Origin: Serratia sp. UGAL515B_01
GTDB taxonomy: Bacteria; Pseudomonadota; Gammaproteobacteria; Enterobacterales; Enterobacteriaceae
Direction of reading: 5' to 3'
Assembly (NCBI RefSeq): GCF_033095805.1
Contig: NZ_CP109901.1
Coordinates: 3,011,766-3,035,765, forward strand
DNA: 24,000 nucleotides
The first letter of the stretch is position 1. Each line of letters starts with the position of its first letter. Under the pieces are notes generated by a model that was given only the letters and a program-made list of their open reading frames with translations, was not told the origin of the DNA and searched no databases. The translations under genes were made by a program, and so were the position numbers. Below are positions 13,887 through 20,870 of the stretch, piece after piece.

Positions 13887-14324
13887 TTAATCCCGCAACA
13901 ACCCCATCTGCTGTTCGTATTCTTGGTCCTTCTTATCCTGATGCCTCACATAACGCCTTATAATTTCTTCGTTCACACCAACCGTGTCAACAAAGTAGCC
14001 CCTTGCCCAAAAGTGATTCCCCCAAAGTTTCTTCCGTATATGTGGGAATTTGTTGTAAAGGCGAATTGCACTGCGTCCTTTCAGGACGCCCATTAACGTG
14101 GATATCGAGAGTTTAGGGGGCACCATCACAACCAGATGAACATGATCTGATTGCACATTCAATTCCAATATCTCGCAATCTTTCATATTGCACAGTATGT
14201 AAATTGAACGATAAAACTCTTTCCCTACTACTCCTGTGAGGATTTTGTAACGATACTTTGGCGTCCAAACCAAGTGGTATTTACAACGCCAGAACACATG
14301 TGCTGAACTTCTATAACTGCTCAT
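13887..14324 (-). CDS. tnpA: IS200/IS605-family Y1 (HUH) transposase TnpA
   Basis: HUH motif SDHVHLVV and catalytic Tyr context HFWARGYFVDTVG. The N-terminus MSSYRSSAHVFWRCKYHLVWTPKYR is typical of IS200/IS1541 TnpA. I prefer the ATG at 14324, which has AAGGA upstream; the ORF-track start at 14375 adds 17 unlikely residues. Confidence 0.92.
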   Translation of the reverse strand: MSSYRSSAHVFWRCKYHLVWTPKYRYKILTGVVGKEFYRSIYILCNMKDCEILELNVQSDHVHLVVMVPPKLSISTLMGVLKGRSAIRLYNKFPHIRKKLWGNHFWARGYFVDTVGVNEEIIRRYVRHQDKKDQEYEQQMGLLRD

Positions 14325-14412
14325 GTCAGTGATTTCCTTCTTACTTGTGGTGAGTAAGCTGGAATTTTCTGGCATGGGCTTTCTTCAGGCTAGAGCCTCA
14401 CAGGAACAATCA

Positions 14413-14516: not shown

Positions 14517-17072
14517 CTAAACTAGACTTTTCAGTCGGTAAATCCACTCCAGTGCTTGCCGTGGCGACAGAGCGTCAGCATCTAATGCCTCCAATGCTTC
14601 TAATGCCGGGGAAACCTCTTCATTCAGTAGCGTCATCTGAGTAGTATCCGCCTTACCGGCAGCAGCTTGGCTGGACATCGTCTCCAGTTCACGTAACTTC
14701 TGGCGCGCACGCTTAATCACATCACGAGGCACACCGGCCAATGCCGCAACTGCCAATCCATAACTTTTACTGGCTGCGCCATCTTGCACACTGTGCATAA
14801 AAGCAATCGTATCACCATGTTCCAGAGCATCTAGATGTACATTGACCACGCCTTCTATTTTTTCTGGCAGCGTTGTCAGTTCAAAGTAATGGGTAGCAAA
14901 TAATGTCATCGCTTTGATCCGGCCCGCCAGATTTTCGGCACAAGCCCAAGCAAGGGAAAGCCCATCATAAGTTGAAGTACCGCGACCAATTTCGTCCATT
15001 AGCACTAGGCTGTTCTCAGTAGCATTGTGAAGGATATTAGCAGTTTCGGTCATCTCAACCATGAAGGTAGAGCGACCAGAGGCTAAATCATCAGCAGCGC
15101 CCACGCGAGTAAAAATACGATCCACCGGACCGATAGTCGCTTTGACTGCTGGCACAAAACTACCAATATGTGCCATCAAGACAATCAACGCAATTTGCCG
15201 CATATAGGTACTTTTTCCGCCCATATTGGGTCCGGTAATGATCAGCATACGGCGCTGCGGAGAAAGTGAAACCGGGTTGGCAATAAACGGCTCGCTCAAA
15301 ACCTGCTCGACCACTGGATGACGACCATCAACAATGTGGATACCCCGTTGTTCACTGATGGTTGGGCAAGCGTAATTCAGCGTTTCCGCACGTTCGGCAA
15401 GATTAACCAGTACATCCAGTTCCGCCAATGCCCCTGCGCTCTGCTGTAATGCCTCAAGATGAGGTAACAACAAATCAAACAGTTCGTCATACAACCCTTT
15501 TTCTATCGACAGTGCCTTCCCTTTTGACGTCAGCACTTTGTCTTCATATTCCTTCAACTCAGGAATGATGTAACGCTCCGCATTCTTCAGAGTTTGGCGG
15601 CGAACATAGTGGATCGGGACCAGATGACTTTGCCCGCGACTGACCTGAATATAATAACCGTGCACGCCGTTAAAACCGACCTTAAGGGTGTCCAGGCCCA
15701 ACTTCTCACGTTCACGGATCTCCAGGCGGTCAAGATAATCGCTGGCGCCGTCTGCAAGTGCACGCCACTCATCCAGTTCTTCGTTATAGCCAGGGGCAAT
15801 TACACCGCCGTCACGAACCAGAACAGGAGGCGCTTCAACAATAGCACGTTCAAGTAGCGTCTTCAGTTCATCAAAATCACCGATCTGAGACAGAAGTTTT
15901 TGTACATGGGCCGTTTCTGTACTTTTCAGCAATGCGCAGATATCCGGCAATTGCTGAAAGGCATGGCGCATACGGGCAAGATCACGAGGACGCGCGGTGC
16001 GCAATGCCAATCGTGCAAGAATTCGCTCAAGATCGCCAACCTGACGCAGCGGTTGCTGTAGGTCAGCGCTTAGATTCTGCAGTGTGATGATCGCCTGCTG
16101 TCGATTGTTCAGTACAGCCATGTCGCGCGTAGGCATATGCAGCCAGCGTTTGAGCATTCGGCTACCCATTGGGGTAACGGTGCGATCAAGTATCGCAGCT
16201 AGAGTATTTTCACTTCCCCCGGAAAGGTTTTGAGTAATCTCCAAATTACGACGTGTTGCCGCATCCATGATAATACCGTCTTGCTGGCGCTCCATGGAGA
16301 TACCACGGATATGTGGCAGTGAAGTGCGCTGAGTGTCTTTGACATACTGCAATAGACAGCCCGCTGCACGTAATGCAAGATCGGCCTGTTCGACACCAAA
16401 TCCGTTGAGATCACGGGTACCAAATTGTAGATTCAGCTGTTGGCGTGCAGTTTCCAGCTCAAACTCCCACAGTGGACGACGGCGAAGGCCATGGCGCTGT
16501 TCAATCAGCACCATTTGTTCGAACGTTTCTGGATATAGTAATTCAGCCGGGTTAGTGCGTTGCAATTCAGCTGACATAGTTTCGAGATCTTCCGGTTCGG
16601 CAACTCTGAAACAGCCAGAACTGAGATCCAAAGTGGCATAACCAAAACCGCGACTATCTTGCCATATAGCTGCCAGCAAATTATCTTGGCGTTCTTGCAG
16701 CAAGGCTTCGTCGGTGATCGTGCCTGGCGTCACTATGCGTACAACTTTACGCTCTACCGGACCTTTACTGGTAGCAGGATCGCCAATCTGTTCACAAATC
16801 GCAACCGACTCACCAAGTTGAACTAACTTGGCGAGATAGTTTTCCACGGCATGGTGCGGAACGCCTGCCATTGGAATAGGTTCCCCTGCTGAAGCACCGC
16901 GCTTGGTCAGAGAGATATCCAACAATTGGGATGCACGTTTAGCATCGTCGTAAAACAGCTCGTAGAAATCCCCCATACGATAGAAGAGTAAGATTTCTGG
17001 ATGTTGCGCCTTAAGGCGCAGGTATTGCTGCATCATTGGCGTATGCGAATCGAAAGTTTCGGTTTTTGTCAT
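14517..17072 (-). CDS. mutS: DNA mismatch repair protein MutS
   Basis: 851 aa with the mismatch-binding motif [12 protein letters not shown], Walker [14 protein letters not shown], Walker [17 protein letters not shown] and C-terminal dimerisation region. Confidence 0.97.
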
Positions 17073-17473: not shown

Positions 17474-18734
17474 GCTGTCGTAGGTAAAAATTGGAAGCTT
17501 CCCGCAACTACGCTTGCAACGGCTCAAGTTAGGTTGCAAGAACTGAAGCAAATCAGAAATGAAGGACGCTGTCCGGCCACTGAGTTGAAAGAAAGGAAGC
17601 AAAGGCTGTTAGAGGAAAGCCATTCGCGGTATCTAAGCAGTTCCTGCACGATTTATTCACCCGAGATCGTACCAAGTATCTCAGTCGAACTGACCGTGTA
17701 AGTTACTTGACCAACATTTTCAACAAACGTAAACGTATGACCTTTGATGACATGATCGGGCAGGCGATCAACCGTGGCTGTCAGGTGAAGCATCAATGGT
17801 CAAAACGCGATATACCAAACAAGCCATTCCGAAACTTGTTGAAAACAGTATGGGGCAATCTAGAACCGCTGCATATCAACCTTGATGCGTTGCGGCAATA
17901 TGTGGACACTCACCACTCAGCTAAAAATATGATGTTCTACCGCAATTTCCTGTCTCATTTGGCAGAGGTAGGCGTAGATCTGATTTCAGACACGCCACTG
18001 GTTGTTGCGTACCGGCAGTCATATAAATCAGCTAAAATAGGTGGTCGCTCGTTCGAAATCGGCACTAGCTTCCAAAGTTTGCCCTCCAAGATGAAATGGG
18101 CGTGTCTTGCTCGTGGTTACAACTACGATATAAAGAGGTGCCAGCTTGAGATCCTGCGCCATGAACTACAGTCTATCGACGTTTCAGACCGTAACTTACG
18201 GCTTCTGGATTCAAAAGTGATCTGCAAGGTTTTAGGGGTAGATGAAGCGTTGGTTAAGCAGTTTAGGTATGCCAGTGTGTTCAACTCTGGTTATGTCAGC
18301 CTTTCCTTCAGAAGTGCGACTGTCCGCCTGCTGAGAAAGGAGTTCGGACGCTCTAAAGCCAAACTATTCTCCTGCGCTGGCTTGAACACTTGGAGCCACT
18401 CAAGCACGATCTGGCTAGGTTACTGGACGTTTATGAAGCTACTGGTAAAACTAACCGCTATGGAAAGTGTGTTACAAATGCGGTGGGGCAGACCTTCAAA
18501 TGTACTTACAAGTGCGTGGCAACAGGTACACGGCGGAAGAGTGATGTAATGCGCCGCAAGCTGCTGGCTCATATGCTGCAAGGGTTGGAAAGCTTGGCGG
18601 TCTACCAATTTGTACGCGATCATCCAGGTCTGATATGCGCGTTAGAGCACGATGGGTTTATTTCTTACCGCTTGATTGATGAAAGTTGGCGGCATCCATA
18701 TTTGAAGATTGTCTTGAAAAATCAAGCATCGTAG
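17474..18734 (+). pseudogene. Frameshifted gene for a minimal family-A-like (Pol I/T7-type) polymerase; candidate mobile-element replication protein
   Basis: Three consecutive open frames overlap: frame 2 at 17474-17701, frame 1 at 17584-18549 and frame 0 at 18357-18734. The first has no start codon. The motifs occur in PolA order: A-like YNYDIKRCQLEILRH (18121-18162), B-like FRYASVFNSGY (18265-18297), YGKCVTNAVG (compare GYVxTxxG), LAHMLQGLES (compare the QGxAAD region) and C-like ALEHDGF (18639-18659). The spacings are about 47 aa from A to B and about 127 aa from B to C, close to Pol I. Confidence 0.55.
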
Positions 18735-18938: not shown

Positions 18939-18973
18939 CCCGGTCAATTCAGTTTTTACCGGGCTTTTACTTT
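18939..18973. terminator. Weak bidirectional hairpin between the polymerase-like pseudogene and the convergent immunity-like ORF
   Basis: CCCGGT (18939-18944) pairs with ACCGGG (18958-18963) across a 13-nt loop. cttttacttt follows on the + strand and ttatggctttt on the - strand. Confidence 0.35.
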
Positions 18974-19322
18974 AAAGTTGTTGATAACGCTCATCTTGTA
19001 AAATAAGTGGTTGTATTTCTTCCTCCCACATACGCTTCTGATATGATTGTCCCTCCGTTGGCTCTGTTCGGTTATGAATACAGTCCTTAATCGCTTTTAC
19101 AGCCAAATTAAACTCTTCTTTACTCAACTCACTAAAACTTATCTGATCCAAGGGTAGGTACATCATTATCTTTTCGTGTATATCCGGATGATTCGCCTGC
19201 AATGCCTCATCGAACAATGTTTCTAAAGCATTAGAGGCCGTTCGGTTAAGTCCTACCGTAAGACCCCTTTCACCATAGTTGTTATTATATGCCTTGCACC
19301 CTATATCAAAAAAAGAACCCAT
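18972..19322 (-). CDS. Small acidic protein, immunity/antitoxin-like partner of the upstream 402-aa ORF
   Basis: The ATG at 19322 lies 2 nt after the upstream TGA (19327-19325). It is preceded by GAGGTG embedded in the last codons of the upstream gene. An alternative GTG at 19328 would overlap the stop. The product is 116-118 aa, rich in Glu/Asp, with predicted helical character and no family I can name. Confidence 0.6.
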   Translation of the reverse strand: MGSFFDIGCKAYNNNYGERGLTVGLNRTASNALETLFDEALQANHPDIHEKIMMYLPLDQISFSELSKEEFNLAVKAIKDCIHNRTEPTEGQSYQKRMWEEEIQPLILQDERYQQL

Positions 19323-19324
19323 AA

Positions 19325-20533
19325 TCACCTCATAATAATAAATTTTTCTTGTTGATTTTTAGGTAATGTTTTTATGTAATCCATAAACACTTTCTGGTTA
19401 GATGGTGTCAATACACTAAAATCAACAGGAACTATGTCCGCTTTCCCTAAATGGTCAAGGATTTGTTTTTGACCAATTGGGATTTCCCCATCAGTTCTCG
19501 TCACAGTCATGTTTTTCTCAAAGAACTTGTTTAGTCCATCAACTTCTTTTTGGGATAAGTTCTTTGTTGTATACATAAAATCAACAGTTTTTCCTGCATT
19601 AGGACCACTACTTATAATAAAATCAGCAGTTTTCCCCCCAGTATCAGGTGCTCTTTCTAGGGGCCCTAGCTTATTTTCCAGTCTTGCCGCAGCCGCGGCT
19701 TCTGCTGGATTGTACTTCCCATTGCCATTTATATCTGGTGTATTCAAGCGTTTTTGGCTTTCCAGAGGAGTGGAGTTTATTTTTGTTTCATTAATCCCAT
19801 CGGCATTCTTGGTGAGTGATAGCTTTGAACCCATGCGCCTTGCACCAAGTAGGGCACTAGCAGCCACTGCAGCACCTGCCGTTTTCTCATTCAGTACCTG
19901 ATCGAACCCTTTAGCAGCATCACCCCCCAGCTTTTTAGCAGTATCTGCAAACATTTCAGGGTTCTGGTTATAAATGCCTCCAGCAGCCAGTAAGCGACCT
20001 GCATTAGCGCTGTTTATCGTTCTCAACGGCGCTTGTGCTTGTACTGGGCTTTCTCCGCGCCTGAATTGATTCATTGGTGTTGGACGCGGTTTTCCGTTTG
20101 TTGTCCGGTAGTCTCGCCTAAGGACTGACTGATCGTATTGAGCAATAATCTTTTTTGTCCCCTCAAAACGAAAAGCCATAGGGTCAGTGCAAACCAGCTT
20201 ACCGCCTTCATTGATATAAAACAGGTTTGCCGGGCCGTAGATATCACTCAACATCACCACATCACCGGAAAACACCATTTTTTCCAGTTTCTCTTTTTCA
20301 CGTAGGCCGCGTGAAGCAGTGCGGTGCTGAACAGTACGATCTTCACGCATATTGATGATATAGCGACCCGTACCATAACCCTCATCAAACACATACTCTC
20401 GACAAATCCGTGACCAAGCCCTATGAGCACTGATTATGCGTTCAAACTCTTCAGGGGCAAGATTATCGTTCGGTAGATAGTACAAATAGATACCGGGCAA
20501 ACTCAGGCTCACTGTTACCTCCGTGTTAAGCAT
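19325..20533 (-). CDS. Three-part protein of unknown function (globular N-domain, Ala/Gly/Asn-rich linker, about 100-aa C-terminal toxin-like module)
   Basis: 402-aa intact ORF. An in-frame stop at 20581-20579 limits any upstream extension, and no SD precedes the ATG. The C-terminal module (EAAAAARLENKLG...TADFIISSGPNAGKTVDFMYTTK...) has an E / D / D...K layout reminiscent of PD-(D/E)xK-type toxin domains (weak). It is coupled to the downstream small ORF. Confidence 0.7.
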   Translation of the reverse strand: MLNTEVTVSLSLPGIYLYYLPNDNLAPEEFERIISAHRAWSRICREYVFDEGYGTGRYIINMREDRTVQHRTASRGLREKEKLEKMVFSGDVVMLSDIYGPANLFYINEGGKLVCTDPMAFRFEGTKKIIAQYDQSVLRRDYRTTNGKPRPTPMNQFRRGESPVQAQAPLRTINSANAGRLLAAGGIYNQNPEMFADTAKKLGGDAAKGFDQVLNEKTAGAAVAASALLGARRMGSKLSLTKNADGINETKINSTPLESQKRLNTPDINGNGKYNPAEAAAAARLENKLGPLERAPDTGGKTADFIISSGPNAGKTVDFMYTTKNLSQKEVDGLNKFFEKNMTVTRTDGEIPIGQKQILDHLGKADIVPVDFSVLTPSNQKVFMDYIKTLPKNQQEKFIIMR

Positions 20534-20681: not shown

Positions 20682-20870
20682 TCACTTTTTCAACGTATCG
20701 AGATAATCCGCCCATTTTTGCAGCCAAACCTTACACTCAGCCTCGTAGCGGTAGAGATCGTAAGTGCCTTCGATACCCTTACGTGAATGGCCTAAAACGG
20801 CTTCAGCGACCTCACTGGGACATCCAAGACGTGCCAAGCCAGTACGCACTGTTCGGCGTATGTTCTGATA
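20682..20870 (-). pseudogene. C-terminal remnant (about 62 codons) of a P4/CP4-57-type tyrosine integrase
   Basis: The minus-strand translation is QNIRRTVRTGLARLGCPSEVAEAVLGHSRKGIEGTYDLYRYEAECKVWLQKWADYLDTLKK*. This is the R-box, the LGH-box and the catalytic-Tyr tail of P4-type integrases. There is no start codon, and the frame is closed by a stop at 20880-20882. It is not in the ORF track. Confidence 0.8.

Follow-up and report, generated by a model that had tools for sequence, protein, structure and literature searches.

Organisation of the locus

We have analysed a 24,000-nt stretch of contig NZ_CP109901.1 of Serratia sp. UGAL515B_01 (positions 3,011,766 to 3,035,765), hereafter the window. 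It carries on its minus strand a toxin gene (19325..20512) followed by a small gene for a putative immunity protein (18972..19322). The underlying open reading frames were confirmed (19325..20533, 402 aa, and 18972..19328 or 18972..19322, 118 or 116 aa), as was the in-frame stop at 20581-20579 that blocks any upstream extension. Both genes are full-length ORFs with strong Shine-Dalgarno sequences, and the pair is real and intact.

The toxin had been read from the ATG at 20533, with the remark that this codon has no Shine-Dalgarno sequence. The remark is correct, but translation almost certainly begins at the GTG at 20512, codon 8 of the 402-aa ORF, which yields a protein of 395 aa, 7 aa fewer than the ATG reading. 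A GGAGGT Shine-Dalgarno sequence (20517..20522, minus strand) can be read directly 4-5 nt 5' of this GTG, which would explain why the ATG has none. In BLAST alignments all N-terminal homologues place their own residue 1 at query residue 8, and the window toxin is a 100% match to NCBI entry WP_317693250.1 (395 aa, Serratia sp. UGAL515B_01). Residue numbers below follow the 402-aa ORF, in which the GTG is residue 8. At the other end of the gene, the toxin stop codon (TGA, 19325-19327) is separated by 2 nt from the ATG of the 116-aa immunity ORF, and the GAGGTG Shine-Dalgarno sequence of the latter (19326..19331, minus strand) lies inside the last codons and the stop of the toxin, a junction that had been described accurately.

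Directly 5' of the toxin gene lies the C-terminal remnant (55 aa; 20682..20849, minus strand) of a tyrosine integrase (phrog_17497, E=4.5e-12); the window holds no full-length integrase ORF. Downstream of the pair, on the plus strand, a phage-like gene (17707..18734) is frameshifted and truncated into two overlapping ORFs, which match phrog_30690 in two frames (profile positions 245-411 and 479-562). These remains mark a decayed mobile element between mutS, at 851 aa the longest ORF in the window, and the gene pair. No tRNA gene was found in the window and no consensus promoter in a scan 5' of the pair.

Toxin module and immunity protein

The C-terminal ~165 residues of the toxin are assigned to the PD-(D/E)XK tRNases of the CdiA-CT E479 family (residues 237-402; 19328..19825, minus strand). 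The Pfam domain PF18664 (CdiA_C_tRNase) covers residues 276-401 over the complete profile (positions 1-116 of 116; E=8.5e-44, 149 bits, curated cutoff 26.5), and residues 235-401 match PDB chain 5J4A_A (E=1.2e-20), from CdiA-CT/CdiI of Burkholderia pseudomallei E479. With this Pfam E-value and 100 homologues found, the observation goes far beyond chance. The toxin module had been placed at residues 303-402; PF18664, 5J4A_A and the alignments with CdiA proteins agree on an extent of about 235-402, and residues 237-275 form its first stretch rather than linker.

Toxins of the E479 type within PF18664 are defined by Mg-dependent cleavage of tRNA (T-loop). The tip of the window toxin is basic (pI 9.0) and shares its fold family with the E479 toxin, whose catalytic residues are E204, D229, D243, H275 and D285 (PMC9086364). 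In a phmmer alignment the first four of them correspond to identical residues E278, D304, D318 and H361, while the counterpart of D285 is ambiguous, so that four of five were mapped and all four appear intact.

The 116-aa protein is acidic (computed pI 4.78), as had been read from the sequence. It has no family match in Pfam or NCBIfam and no match in PDB, and differs from the CdiI of E479 in showing no detectable sequence similarity to it. It is, however, 86% identical to a 115-aa ORF in the same arrangement after a Dickeya orphan CdiA-CT tRNase, where the small ORF also begins 2 nt beyond the CdiA-CT stop. As a companion of an E479-type toxin it is the predicted cognate immunity protein. Taken alone, the toxin and immunity pair is an ordinary member of known families.

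Import of the toxin/immunity cassette

The toxin tip is 87% identical at the protein level to the C-termini of Dickeya and Pectobacterium CdiA proteins. In blastn, positions 18966..19810 (minus strand) align as one contiguous stretch of 845 bp, at 82.8% DNA identity, with an orphan cdiA-CT/cdiI module of Dickeya fangzhongdai; the match runs across the 2-nt junction and the whole immunity gene and stops 6 nt past the immunity stop codon. The GC content of this segment is 0.38-0.39, against 0.46-0.52 in the 5' part of the toxin gene. This similarity in DNA and the low GC content together argue for a recently swapped cassette: toxin tip and immunity gene were imported as one piece from a CDI-type cdiA-CT/cdiI module and joined to the scaffold just after residue 236. 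Of the idea of an orphan toxin cassette, entertained in the original prediction, the origin from an orphan cdiA-CT/cdiI-type module therefore stands, but the cassette is not free-standing: it continues the reading frame of a complete N-terminal scaffold.

Homology to CdiA proteins begins only at about residue 235, downstream of their VENN and DUF6862 regions, the latter of which may be the entry region of the Dickeya CdiA fragment; an imported piece without VENN and DUF6862 fits delivery by a different route. A Pfam search of the 395-aa protein found neither VENN (PF04829) nor haemagglutinin repeats nor a TPS domain, and PAAR, Rhs and LXG families likewise gave no match, in agreement with what had been noted by eye. 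Whereas CDI exoproteins are multi-thousand-residue proteins, the window toxin sits on a 230-aa scaffold of cytoplasmic type. No cdiB is present among the annotated neighbours (mutS, the integrase remnant, LprI and an ABC ATPase), a scan that ended before the ORFs upstream of nlpD. The locus records how a toxin/immunity cassette with sharply defined borders recently passed from a type V (CDI) module to a different delivery scaffold, and is an example of toxin tips moving between secretion systems.

The DUF8093 scaffold

The N-terminal part of the toxin deserves special attention. It had been considered to hold no motif that could be placed and no delivery domain, yet residues 8-150 (20084..20512, minus strand) belong to a catalogued Pfam family, DUF8093 (PF26362), according to the Pfam annotation already available for this protein and its homologues; we propose it as a loading or delivery domain. 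The domain is conserved in 40 or more homologues. It is modelled by AF2 as a globular alpha+beta domain with pLDDT of 87-92 over most blocks, and this model has no fold match in PDB. In the literature we found neither an experimental characterisation of DUF8093 nor secretion data on any DUF8093 protein.

Comparison of homologues supports the view that the pair is a polymorphic toxin/immunity system, and the survey of homologues called for in the original prediction returned the expected pattern of a constant N-terminus, variable C-termini and cognate small ORFs. Two homologues, P0002 and P0003, are 96% and 90% identical to the window protein over residues 8-236 only and diverge sharply after residue 236, where the N-terminal homology block ends. 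At least seven different C-terminal Pfam families occur among the homologues, including PF13930, PF15538, PF14414/PF12639, PF11429, PF09994 and HNH; in terms of toxin types, the tips comprise HNH, EndoNS, Ntox46 (NADase), colicin D, Tle1-like and tRNase. In nearly all intact loci a small ORF begins between -8 and +24 nt from the toxin stop, and where the immunity family is known it suits the tip: Ntox46 is followed by Tsi6 genes, three in all, and the Tle1-like tip by two DUF2931 genes. DUF8093 and the helical module that follows it thus form a constant scaffold with variable tips and their own immunity genes, always in orphan loci.

The hosts belong to the Enterobacterales. The main one is Yersinia (including Y. 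pestis, Y. pseudotuberculosis and Y. enterocolitica), with further members in Serratia, Erwinia and Mixta; the genes are chromosomal apart from two plasmid records. A search with the alignment of the N-terminal domain alone retrieved fragments only. None of 50,697 phage records contains a DUF8093 gene, and none of 5,426 E. coli genomes contains similar DNA. The UGAL515B_01 genome itself encodes a second DUF8093 toxin (P0032).

A conserved helical module between DUF8093 and the toxin

Between DUF8093 and the toxin, residues 151-236 (19826..20083, minus strand; AF2, BLAST and hhalign) had been taken for part of a low-complexity linker of 140 aa. Only residues ~151-170 are a short disordered stretch. 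They are followed at ~172-236 by a strongly conserved module of ~65 aa, modelled by AF2 as three helices, with the motif TINSxxAGRLLAAGGIYNxN..F..TA..LGGDA..G.DQVLNEKTAG. The supposed linker thus holds a conserved module that also occurs in PIX effectors and in the Hcp-toxin fusions of type VI systems: BLAST aligns it with Hcp-ET, the hhalign probability for the same pair reaches 100% from column 164 on, and PIX proteins carry the same helical motif. The region also matches phrog_31266. That three unrelated or barely related N-terminal domains share this module suggests a common junction or translocation element.

Comparison with Hcp-ET and PIX effectors

Hcp-ET proteins are described as Hcp fused to extended toxin domains in E. 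coli and Citrobacter (Ma et al. 2017, as cited in PMC8262886). They resemble the window protein in the position of the helical module (~165-235), in length (~381-388 aa) and in the HNH tips of many members. The difference lies in the N-terminal domain, which here is not Hcp: PF05638 (Hcp) gave no match in the window protein at E<=1, and the AF2 model is alpha+beta with no beta-barrel. That DUF8093 might be a degenerate Hcp, as the colinear Hcp-ET matches could suggest, was rejected on an hhalign probability of 0.3% and on the different AF2 fold.

PIX-domain proteins are orphan type VI cargo effectors, exemplified by Pse3/Psi3 and Pse4/Psi4 of Pantoea agglomerans (Carobbi et al., bioRxiv 10.1101/2023.07.16.549128). 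According to that work, PIX is both required for type VI secretion and sufficient for it, binds VgrG and is encoded in orphan loci, with a toxin repertoire that includes 'CdiA-CT-like' tips; Yersinia is not among the genera named in that preprint (bioRxiv 10.1101/2023.07.16.549128). Neither Yersinia nor the accessions of our matches occur in the ~15% of the PIX dataset rows that were examined. Of the genomes that encode PIX, 92% have at least 9 of 11 type VI core genes. Both families show a globular N-terminal domain of ~140 aa, then the same helical module, then a polymorphic toxin. In both, the immunity gene lies no more than 25 bp away, the loci are always orphan and often border on debris of mobile elements, and the distribution is limited to Enterobacterales; they share NADase, HNH, colicin D, DUF2235 lipase and 'CdiA-CT-like' tips. 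They differ in setting: PIX is a frequent cargo of conjugative plasmids in Enterobacter, Salmonella and Klebsiella (447 records), and the DUF8093 genes are chromosomal.

They differ also in the sequence of the N-terminal domain, since Pse3 begins MLHHYQAKSVDDIYLDDIPNIIHP and the window protein MSLSLPGIYLYYLPNDNLAPEEFERII. As PIX proxies we used proteins identified by the Pse3 N-terminus, as read from the authors' model file. The two profiles are colinear and weakly similar, and have the motifs D-D/E-x-P..I..P..A, G-x-V-V-x-L and G-x-L in common; cross-scoring of the HMMs yields 2-11 bits. An initial hhalign probability of 93.7% for PIX was discarded as inflated by the shared pre-linker tail; trimmed to the globular parts, the comparison gave P=0.002, at a score reached by only one of 260 column shuffles, and a probability of 13.6%. 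The PIX protein P0100 bears no PF26362 annotation, its AF2 model (pLDDT 45) is too poor for a comparison of folds, and a homologue search with the PIX N-terminus found nothing. Identity of DUF8093 with PIX was rejected, given the mismatch with the Pse3 N-terminus and the low scores against the proxies; the authors themselves define the domain by a PSSM of Pse3 1-140 (E<=1e-9, coverage >=70%).

Delivery and mode of action

We consider the pair to be, more likely than not, an orphan effector/immunity module of the Enterobacterales polymorphic toxins, fired by a type VI secretion system and killing neighbours with its tRNase. Type VI delivery of the window toxin is here inferred by analogy. DUF8093 would act like the PIX domain of Pantoea Pse3 and Pse4 and attach the protein to a component of the type VI spike or tube, for which VgrG is the probable candidate. 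Once injected into adjacent bacteria, the tRNase would cleave tRNA and bring translation to a stop. The producer and its kin would be spared through binding of the toxin by the immunity protein. Tips of the Tle1-like and Tse6 types, both present on the DUF8093 scaffold, are typical of type VI toxins. The tip of the window toxin is uninformative on the route of delivery, since CdiA-CT modules also move among systems other than type VI. Inspection of the neighbours of homologues, advised in the original prediction, found type VI genes near none of the loci examined; the same is true of PIX loci, and there is thus no positive genomic link to type VI.

Among the alternatives, the best placed, though unlikely, is a genuine interbacterial toxin/immunity module that DUF8093 directs to a route other than type VI, be it another secretion system, release in the manner of colicins, vesicles or a link to phages. 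It is consistent with a domain that by sequence is neither PIX nor Hcp and has no PDB fold match, with the lack of type VI genes near the loci examined, and with matches to PHROG families of unknown function for a pair in a decayed integrative element. Against it, the module behind DUF8093 also stands behind Hcp and PIX in effectors whose type VI secretion is proven or reported, the Tle1-like/DUF2931 and Ntox46/Tsi6 combinations point to type VI, and the absence of the domain from the phage records speaks against a phage link. A colicin-like operon finds no match either: downstream of 18972 there is no minus-strand ORF of at least 40 aa that could be a lysis gene, no signal peptide had been noted on first reading, and the N-terminus, in place of a disordered translocation domain with a Tol or Ton box, is modelled with confidence as a globular fold (AF2).

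Slightly less probable still is a stranded module that is not deployed and is kept briefly or for its immunity gene alone, for example in a host with no compatible type VI system. The integrase remnant and the frameshifted phage-like gene at its flanks, the missing consensus promoter and the decay of many family members to pseudogenes or fragments (L021, L026, L028, L037 and L048) would fit such a fate; Y. pestis and Y. pseudotuberculosis, for instance, carry DUF8093-family fragments of 77 aa. The full length of both ORFs, their strong Shine-Dalgarno sequences and the conservation of the catalytic residues argue otherwise, as does the second DUF8093 toxin retained in the same genome, and a recent cassette fused in frame suggests selection for use.

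An intracellular toxin-antitoxin or abortive-infection system on a mobile element, an option raised earlier, would fit a translationally coupled two-gene operon of a nuclease and a small acidic antidote beside a mobile-element remnant, but is very improbable: neither protein has a PADLOC match or such a family in Pfam/NCBIfam, toxin domain and immunity protein are 86-87% identical to a CdiA exoprotein module, a conserved N-terminal scaffold of 230 aa is atypical of such systems, and the reading makes no sense for a scaffold that also bears periplasm-acting lipase tips with immunity genes of periplasmic type, Tle1-like lipase/DUF2931 and Tse6-type NADase/Tsi6 being interbacterial weapons and not intracellular toxin-antitoxin toxins.

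Within the favoured reading of a type VI effector, we tentatively suggest, as a possibility with somewhat poorer than even prospects, that DUF8093 is a third type VI loading domain and a distant sister of PIX, and that the helical module of ~65 aa is a functional unit of its own. If DUF8093 is such a loading domain, it would mark orphan effectors by the dozen in Yersinia and its relatives, effectors that searches based on gene neighbourhood miss, as PIX effectors in Pantoea and Enterobacter were missed. Found behind three types of N-terminal domain, the helical module is a candidate junction or translocation element. It could serve as a recombination handle for the swapping of toxin/immunity cassettes, and its hydrophobic third helix could also help nuclease and NADase tips to cross the inner membrane of the target cell. 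The Tle1-like lipase member P0066 carries no helical module, and Tle1-like lipases act in the periplasm.

A tRNase tip and its immunity gene

We have identified the C-terminal tip of the toxin as a predicted, intact tRNase of the E479 type. Residues 276-401 (numbered on the 402-aa version of the protein) match PF18664 (CdiA_C_tRNase) end to end (E=8.5e-44; 149 bits, Pfam cutoff 26.5), and residues 235-401 match the E479 CdiA-CT tRNase of Burkholderia pseudomallei (PDB 5J4A, chain A; E=1.2e-20). The latter was reviewed as a Mg-dependent PD-(D/E)XK tRNase cleaving the T-loop, with E204, D229, D243, H275 and D285 in the active site (PMC9086364). The first four are aligned with identical residues of the window toxin (E278, D304, D318 and H361); the placement of D285 is ambiguous in this alignment. 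The closest homologues of the C-terminal part (residues ~235-402, 80-88% identity) are VENN-containing CdiA fragments of Dickeya, Pectobacterium, Erwinia and others.

The 116-aa small ORF matched no family in the profile search and no solved structure, and context provided the decisive evidence for its role. The Dickeya fangzhongdai homologue is an orphan cdiA-CT (VENN, DUF6862 and tRNase) located downstream of a full CdiA/barstar pair, and a 115-aa ORF, whose product is 86% identical to the 116-aa protein, starts 2 nt past its stop. At the DNA level, an 845-bp stretch (18966-19810), running from codon ~241 to 6 nt past the immunity stop, is 82.8% identical to the Dickeya module. The GC content of the toxin tip (0.38) and immunity gene (0.39) is lower than that of the N-domain (0.46), linker (0.52) and mutS (0.50). 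For these reasons, tip and immunity gene are evidently a single, recently imported cassette. The PF18664 match and the Dickeya ORF support the original prediction of a toxin/immunity pair and identify the 116-aa product as the predicted cognate immunity protein, co-transferring with the E479-type tRNase. In the Dickeya CdiA fragment, a VENN motif and a DUF6862 region precede the part that was imported; the transfer thus omitted the upstream elements specific to CDI, in keeping with delivery by another route.

Organisation and genomic context of the gene pair

Both ORFs were found on the minus strand where they had been placed: the toxin ORF at 19325..20533 (402 aa from the ATG) and the small ORF at 18972..19328 (118 aa from a GTG, 116 aa from the ATG at 19322). 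Across the junction the sequence is ATG AGG TGA TT ATG, with 2 nt between the toxin stop and the second ATG and with GAGGTG within the last toxin codons, as described originally; the upstream in-frame stop at 20581-20579 and the acidity of the small protein (pI 4.78, versus 9.0 for the basic toxin tip) were likewise confirmed. The toxin ATG indeed lacks a Shine-Dalgarno (SD) sequence, but the likely start is the GTG of codon 8 at 20512, preceded by GGAGGT. Since this GTG has an SD, the identical database protein (WP_317693250.1, Serratia sp. UGAL515B_01) has 395 aa, and query residue 8 pairs with residue 1 of every N-terminal homologue, the toxin is most likely 395 aa long, which accounts for the ATG at 20533 without an SD.

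The pair sits in a core chromosomal region, in which nlpD (11760), rpoS (12765) and mutS (14517-17072, minus strand) were identified by Pfam; the ORFs upstream of nlpD are presumably ftsB-ispD-ispF-truD-surE-pcm, judging by their sizes and order. The mutS-rpoS interval holds an IS200/IS605-type (Y1) transposase gene (13887-14375, minus strand; PF01797, E=1.6e-41). A small patch of foreign DNA, holding a 97-aa ORF, a phage-like gene, the pair itself and an integrase remnant, lies between mutS and the LprI-like and ABC transporter genes. Adjoining the pair is a frameshifted, 5'-truncated remnant of a phage or satellite gene (17707-18734, plus strand), whose two overlapping ORFs in different frames match positions 245-411 and 479-562 of phrog_30690, a 629-position profile of unknown function. 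Of a tyrosine integrase, only the last 55 aa are left (20682-20849, minus strand; phrog_17497, E=4.5e-12), and the window yielded neither a tRNA gene nor an attachment site. The LprI-like gene (lysozyme inhibitor, PF07007; 20883-21269, minus strand), flanked on one side by the integrase remnant and on the other by the ABC transporter genes, has the lowest GC of the region (0.345) and a signal-peptide-like N-terminus, and is probably foreign DNA too.

The polymorphic DUF8093 family

The N-terminus, in which no motif had been placed, does belong to a catalogued domain: precomputed Pfam annotation assigns PF26362 (DUF8093) to the identical protein and to about 45 homologues from Yersinia, Serratia, Erwinia, Pantoea, Mixta, Enterobacter, Atlantibacter, Kluyvera and Yokenella. 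Residues 8-236 are common to the homologues, with divergence beyond; even in the closely related P0002 and P0003 (96% and 90% identical) similarity drops sharply past residue 236. The tips comprise Endonuclea_NS_2, Ntox46, WHH/colicin-DNase, Colicin_D, HNH, T6SS_Tle1-like and E479-type tRNase domains. In five Pfam-annotated neighbourhoods small genes directly follow the toxin gene: three Tsi6 genes after the Ntox46 tip, two DUF2931 genes after the Tle1-like tip and unannotated ORFs of 113-166 aa after the others. A one-genome-per-species scan returned 40 loci, all in Enterobacterales and several of them pseudogenes; in nearly all intact ones the small ORF begins -8 to +24 nt from the toxin stop. 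The survey thus recovered a constant N-terminus, variable C-terminus and cognate small ORF, the pattern originally put forward as a test, and shows a polymorphic scaffold on which cassettes are exchanged just past residue 236. The toxin domain, immunity arrangement and general logic were already known; for DUF8093, Pfam has no more than a DUF entry, and our literature search found no paper naming DUF8093/PF26362.

In Yersinia pseudotuberculosis (L001:10001-12632) a DUF8093-Ntox46 toxin gene precedes three tandem Tsi6-family immunity genes. Y. pestis and certain strains of Y. pseudotuberculosis have cluster members that are 41-131-aa fragments, some labelled 'type IV secretion protein Rhs', which points to decay and misannotation. 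On plasmid pJZ2-01 of Pantoea sp. JZ2 (L005:2047-3942) an IS110 insertion removed the 5' end of a DUF8093-HNH toxin gene, beside which the YrhA-family immunity gene is intact. The Serratia genome itself encodes a second DUF8093 toxin (P0032, WP_317695213.1; 447 aa, Endonuclea_NS_2 tip) with a different, longer linker without the TINSK...GRLLAAGG module. Residues 65-223 of the window toxin (19328-20512, minus strand) match two PHROG families of unknown function, phrog_14497 (E=7.6e-64) and phrog_31266 (E=3.5e-26), and relatives are therefore present in prophage-derived protein sets; no DUF8093 gene was found among 50,697 phage genome records.

A shared helical module

The supposed low-complexity linker turned out to hold, at residues ~172-236, a conserved motif (TINSxxAGRLLAAGGIYNxNxExFxxTAxKLGGDAxKGxDQVLNEKTAG, then a hydrophobic helix), across which AF2 predicts three helices. 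Hcp-toxin fusions of E. coli, Citrobacter and Enterobacter have this module at the corresponding position; profile comparison of these with DUF8093 proteins gave 100% probability from the linker onward, not across the N-domains. Together with its presence in PIX proteins (below), this points to a helical junction common to three effector classes (DUF8093, Hcp and PIX). The module found in the DUF8093 members with nuclease and NADase tips is absent from P0066 of Candidatus Pantoea floridensis (L008:10001-13593), which has a Tle1-like lipase tip; this would fit, if not prove, a module role in reaching the target cytoplasm.

DUF8093, PIX and delivery

PIX is the N-terminal domain of the orphan type VI effectors Pse3 and Pse4 of Pantoea agglomerans, in which the first 140 residues bind VgrG and are required for type VI secretion, for which they also suffice (bioRxiv 10.1101/2023.07.16.549128). 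PIX proteins are confined to Enterobacterales and always orphan-encoded; their immunity genes lie no more than 25 bp away, and they bear NADase, HNH, colicin-like, 'CdiA-CT-like' or DUF2235 tips (bioRxiv 10.1101/2023.07.16.549128), an architecture closely resembling that of DUF8093 proteins. The Pse3 start (MLHHYQAKSVDDIYLDDIPNIIHPDMAARY, the first 30 residues in the PIX authors' model file) matches an HNH protein of a Salmonella IncHI2 plasmid (MLHHCQAKSLDDIYLEDIPNIIHP...) and P0100 of Mangrovibacter, both bearing the helical module, and does not match the window toxin N-terminus, MSLSLPGIYLYYLPNDNLAPEEFERII.

N-domains of 102 module-containing proteins fell into three BLAST clusters: DUF8093 (79), Hcp (13) and PIX (10). 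DUF8093 is not Hcp: a PF05638 match is absent, hhalign probability is 0.3%, and the AF2 model has an alpha+beta fold instead of a beta-barrel (pLDDT 87-92 across most of residues 8-150); Foldseek searches of this model against PDB gave no fold match (best E of 5). Nor is it a sequence member of PIX, with cross-HMM scores of 2-11 bits and an hhalign probability of 13.6% for the globular parts (score 25.1, P=0.002); a value of 93.7% was discounted as inflated by the common pre-linker tail. The globular parts are nevertheless colinear over 91 columns with three motifs in common, and 1/260 column shuffles reached the score, which suggests, but does not prove, remote homology; the AF2 model of a PIX protein (pLDDT 45) was too poor for structural comparison. 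Functionally, DUF8093 occupies exactly the place of PIX and Hcp, and PIX is the closest characterised class to the window toxin. The missing delivery domain of the original prediction is largely supplied by analogy, making the finding less strange than first thought.

By this analogy, DUF8093 would load the toxin onto a spike or tube component of a type VI system, as PIX does onto VgrG; the effector would be injected into neighbour cells, where the tRNase would cut tRNA and stop translation, and the immunity protein would guard the producer and its kin. We consider this whole chain reasonably probable. DUF8093 is also an uncharacterised candidate marker for effectors in Yersinia and relatives that lends itself to testing. 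No type VI gene or cdiB was found among annotated window neighbours, nor type VI genes within 10 kb in five annotated homologous loci, nor a type VI family matched by at least two ORFs among 145 neighbour ORFs of 13 further loci. PIX loci likewise have no type VI genes nearby (bioRxiv 10.1101/2023.07.16.549128), so that this absence is expected under type VI delivery, to which it lends no positive support; that DUF8093 serves another, unknown delivery route is rather unlikely. The pair could also be a stranded, unexpressed module, as the promoter scan upstream of it found no promoter, it lies amid decayed DNA and the family includes many pseudogenes; we hold this to be unlikely. An intracellular toxin-antitoxin or abortive-infection system, one of the options first proposed, is very improbable given the absence of PADLOC matches, the derivation of the cassette from CdiA, and the periplasm-acting lipase tips in the family.

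As regards PIX itself, relatives occur in 447 plasmid records, DUF8093 in only 2; the hosts (Enterobacter, Salmonella, Klebsiella, Citrobacter, Escherichia, Pantoea and others) agree with the published genera (bioRxiv 10.1101/2023.07.16.549128). The Salmonella IncHI2 plasmid CP082630.1 (L006:2974-4551) encodes a PIX-HNH effector accompanied by a YrhA-family immunity gene. This combination is found in 447 plasmid records, 433 of them conjugative, with large conjugative plasmids in Enterobacter, Salmonella, Klebsiella, Citrobacter and Escherichia; resistance-type plasmids are therefore spreading a type VI cargo effector.
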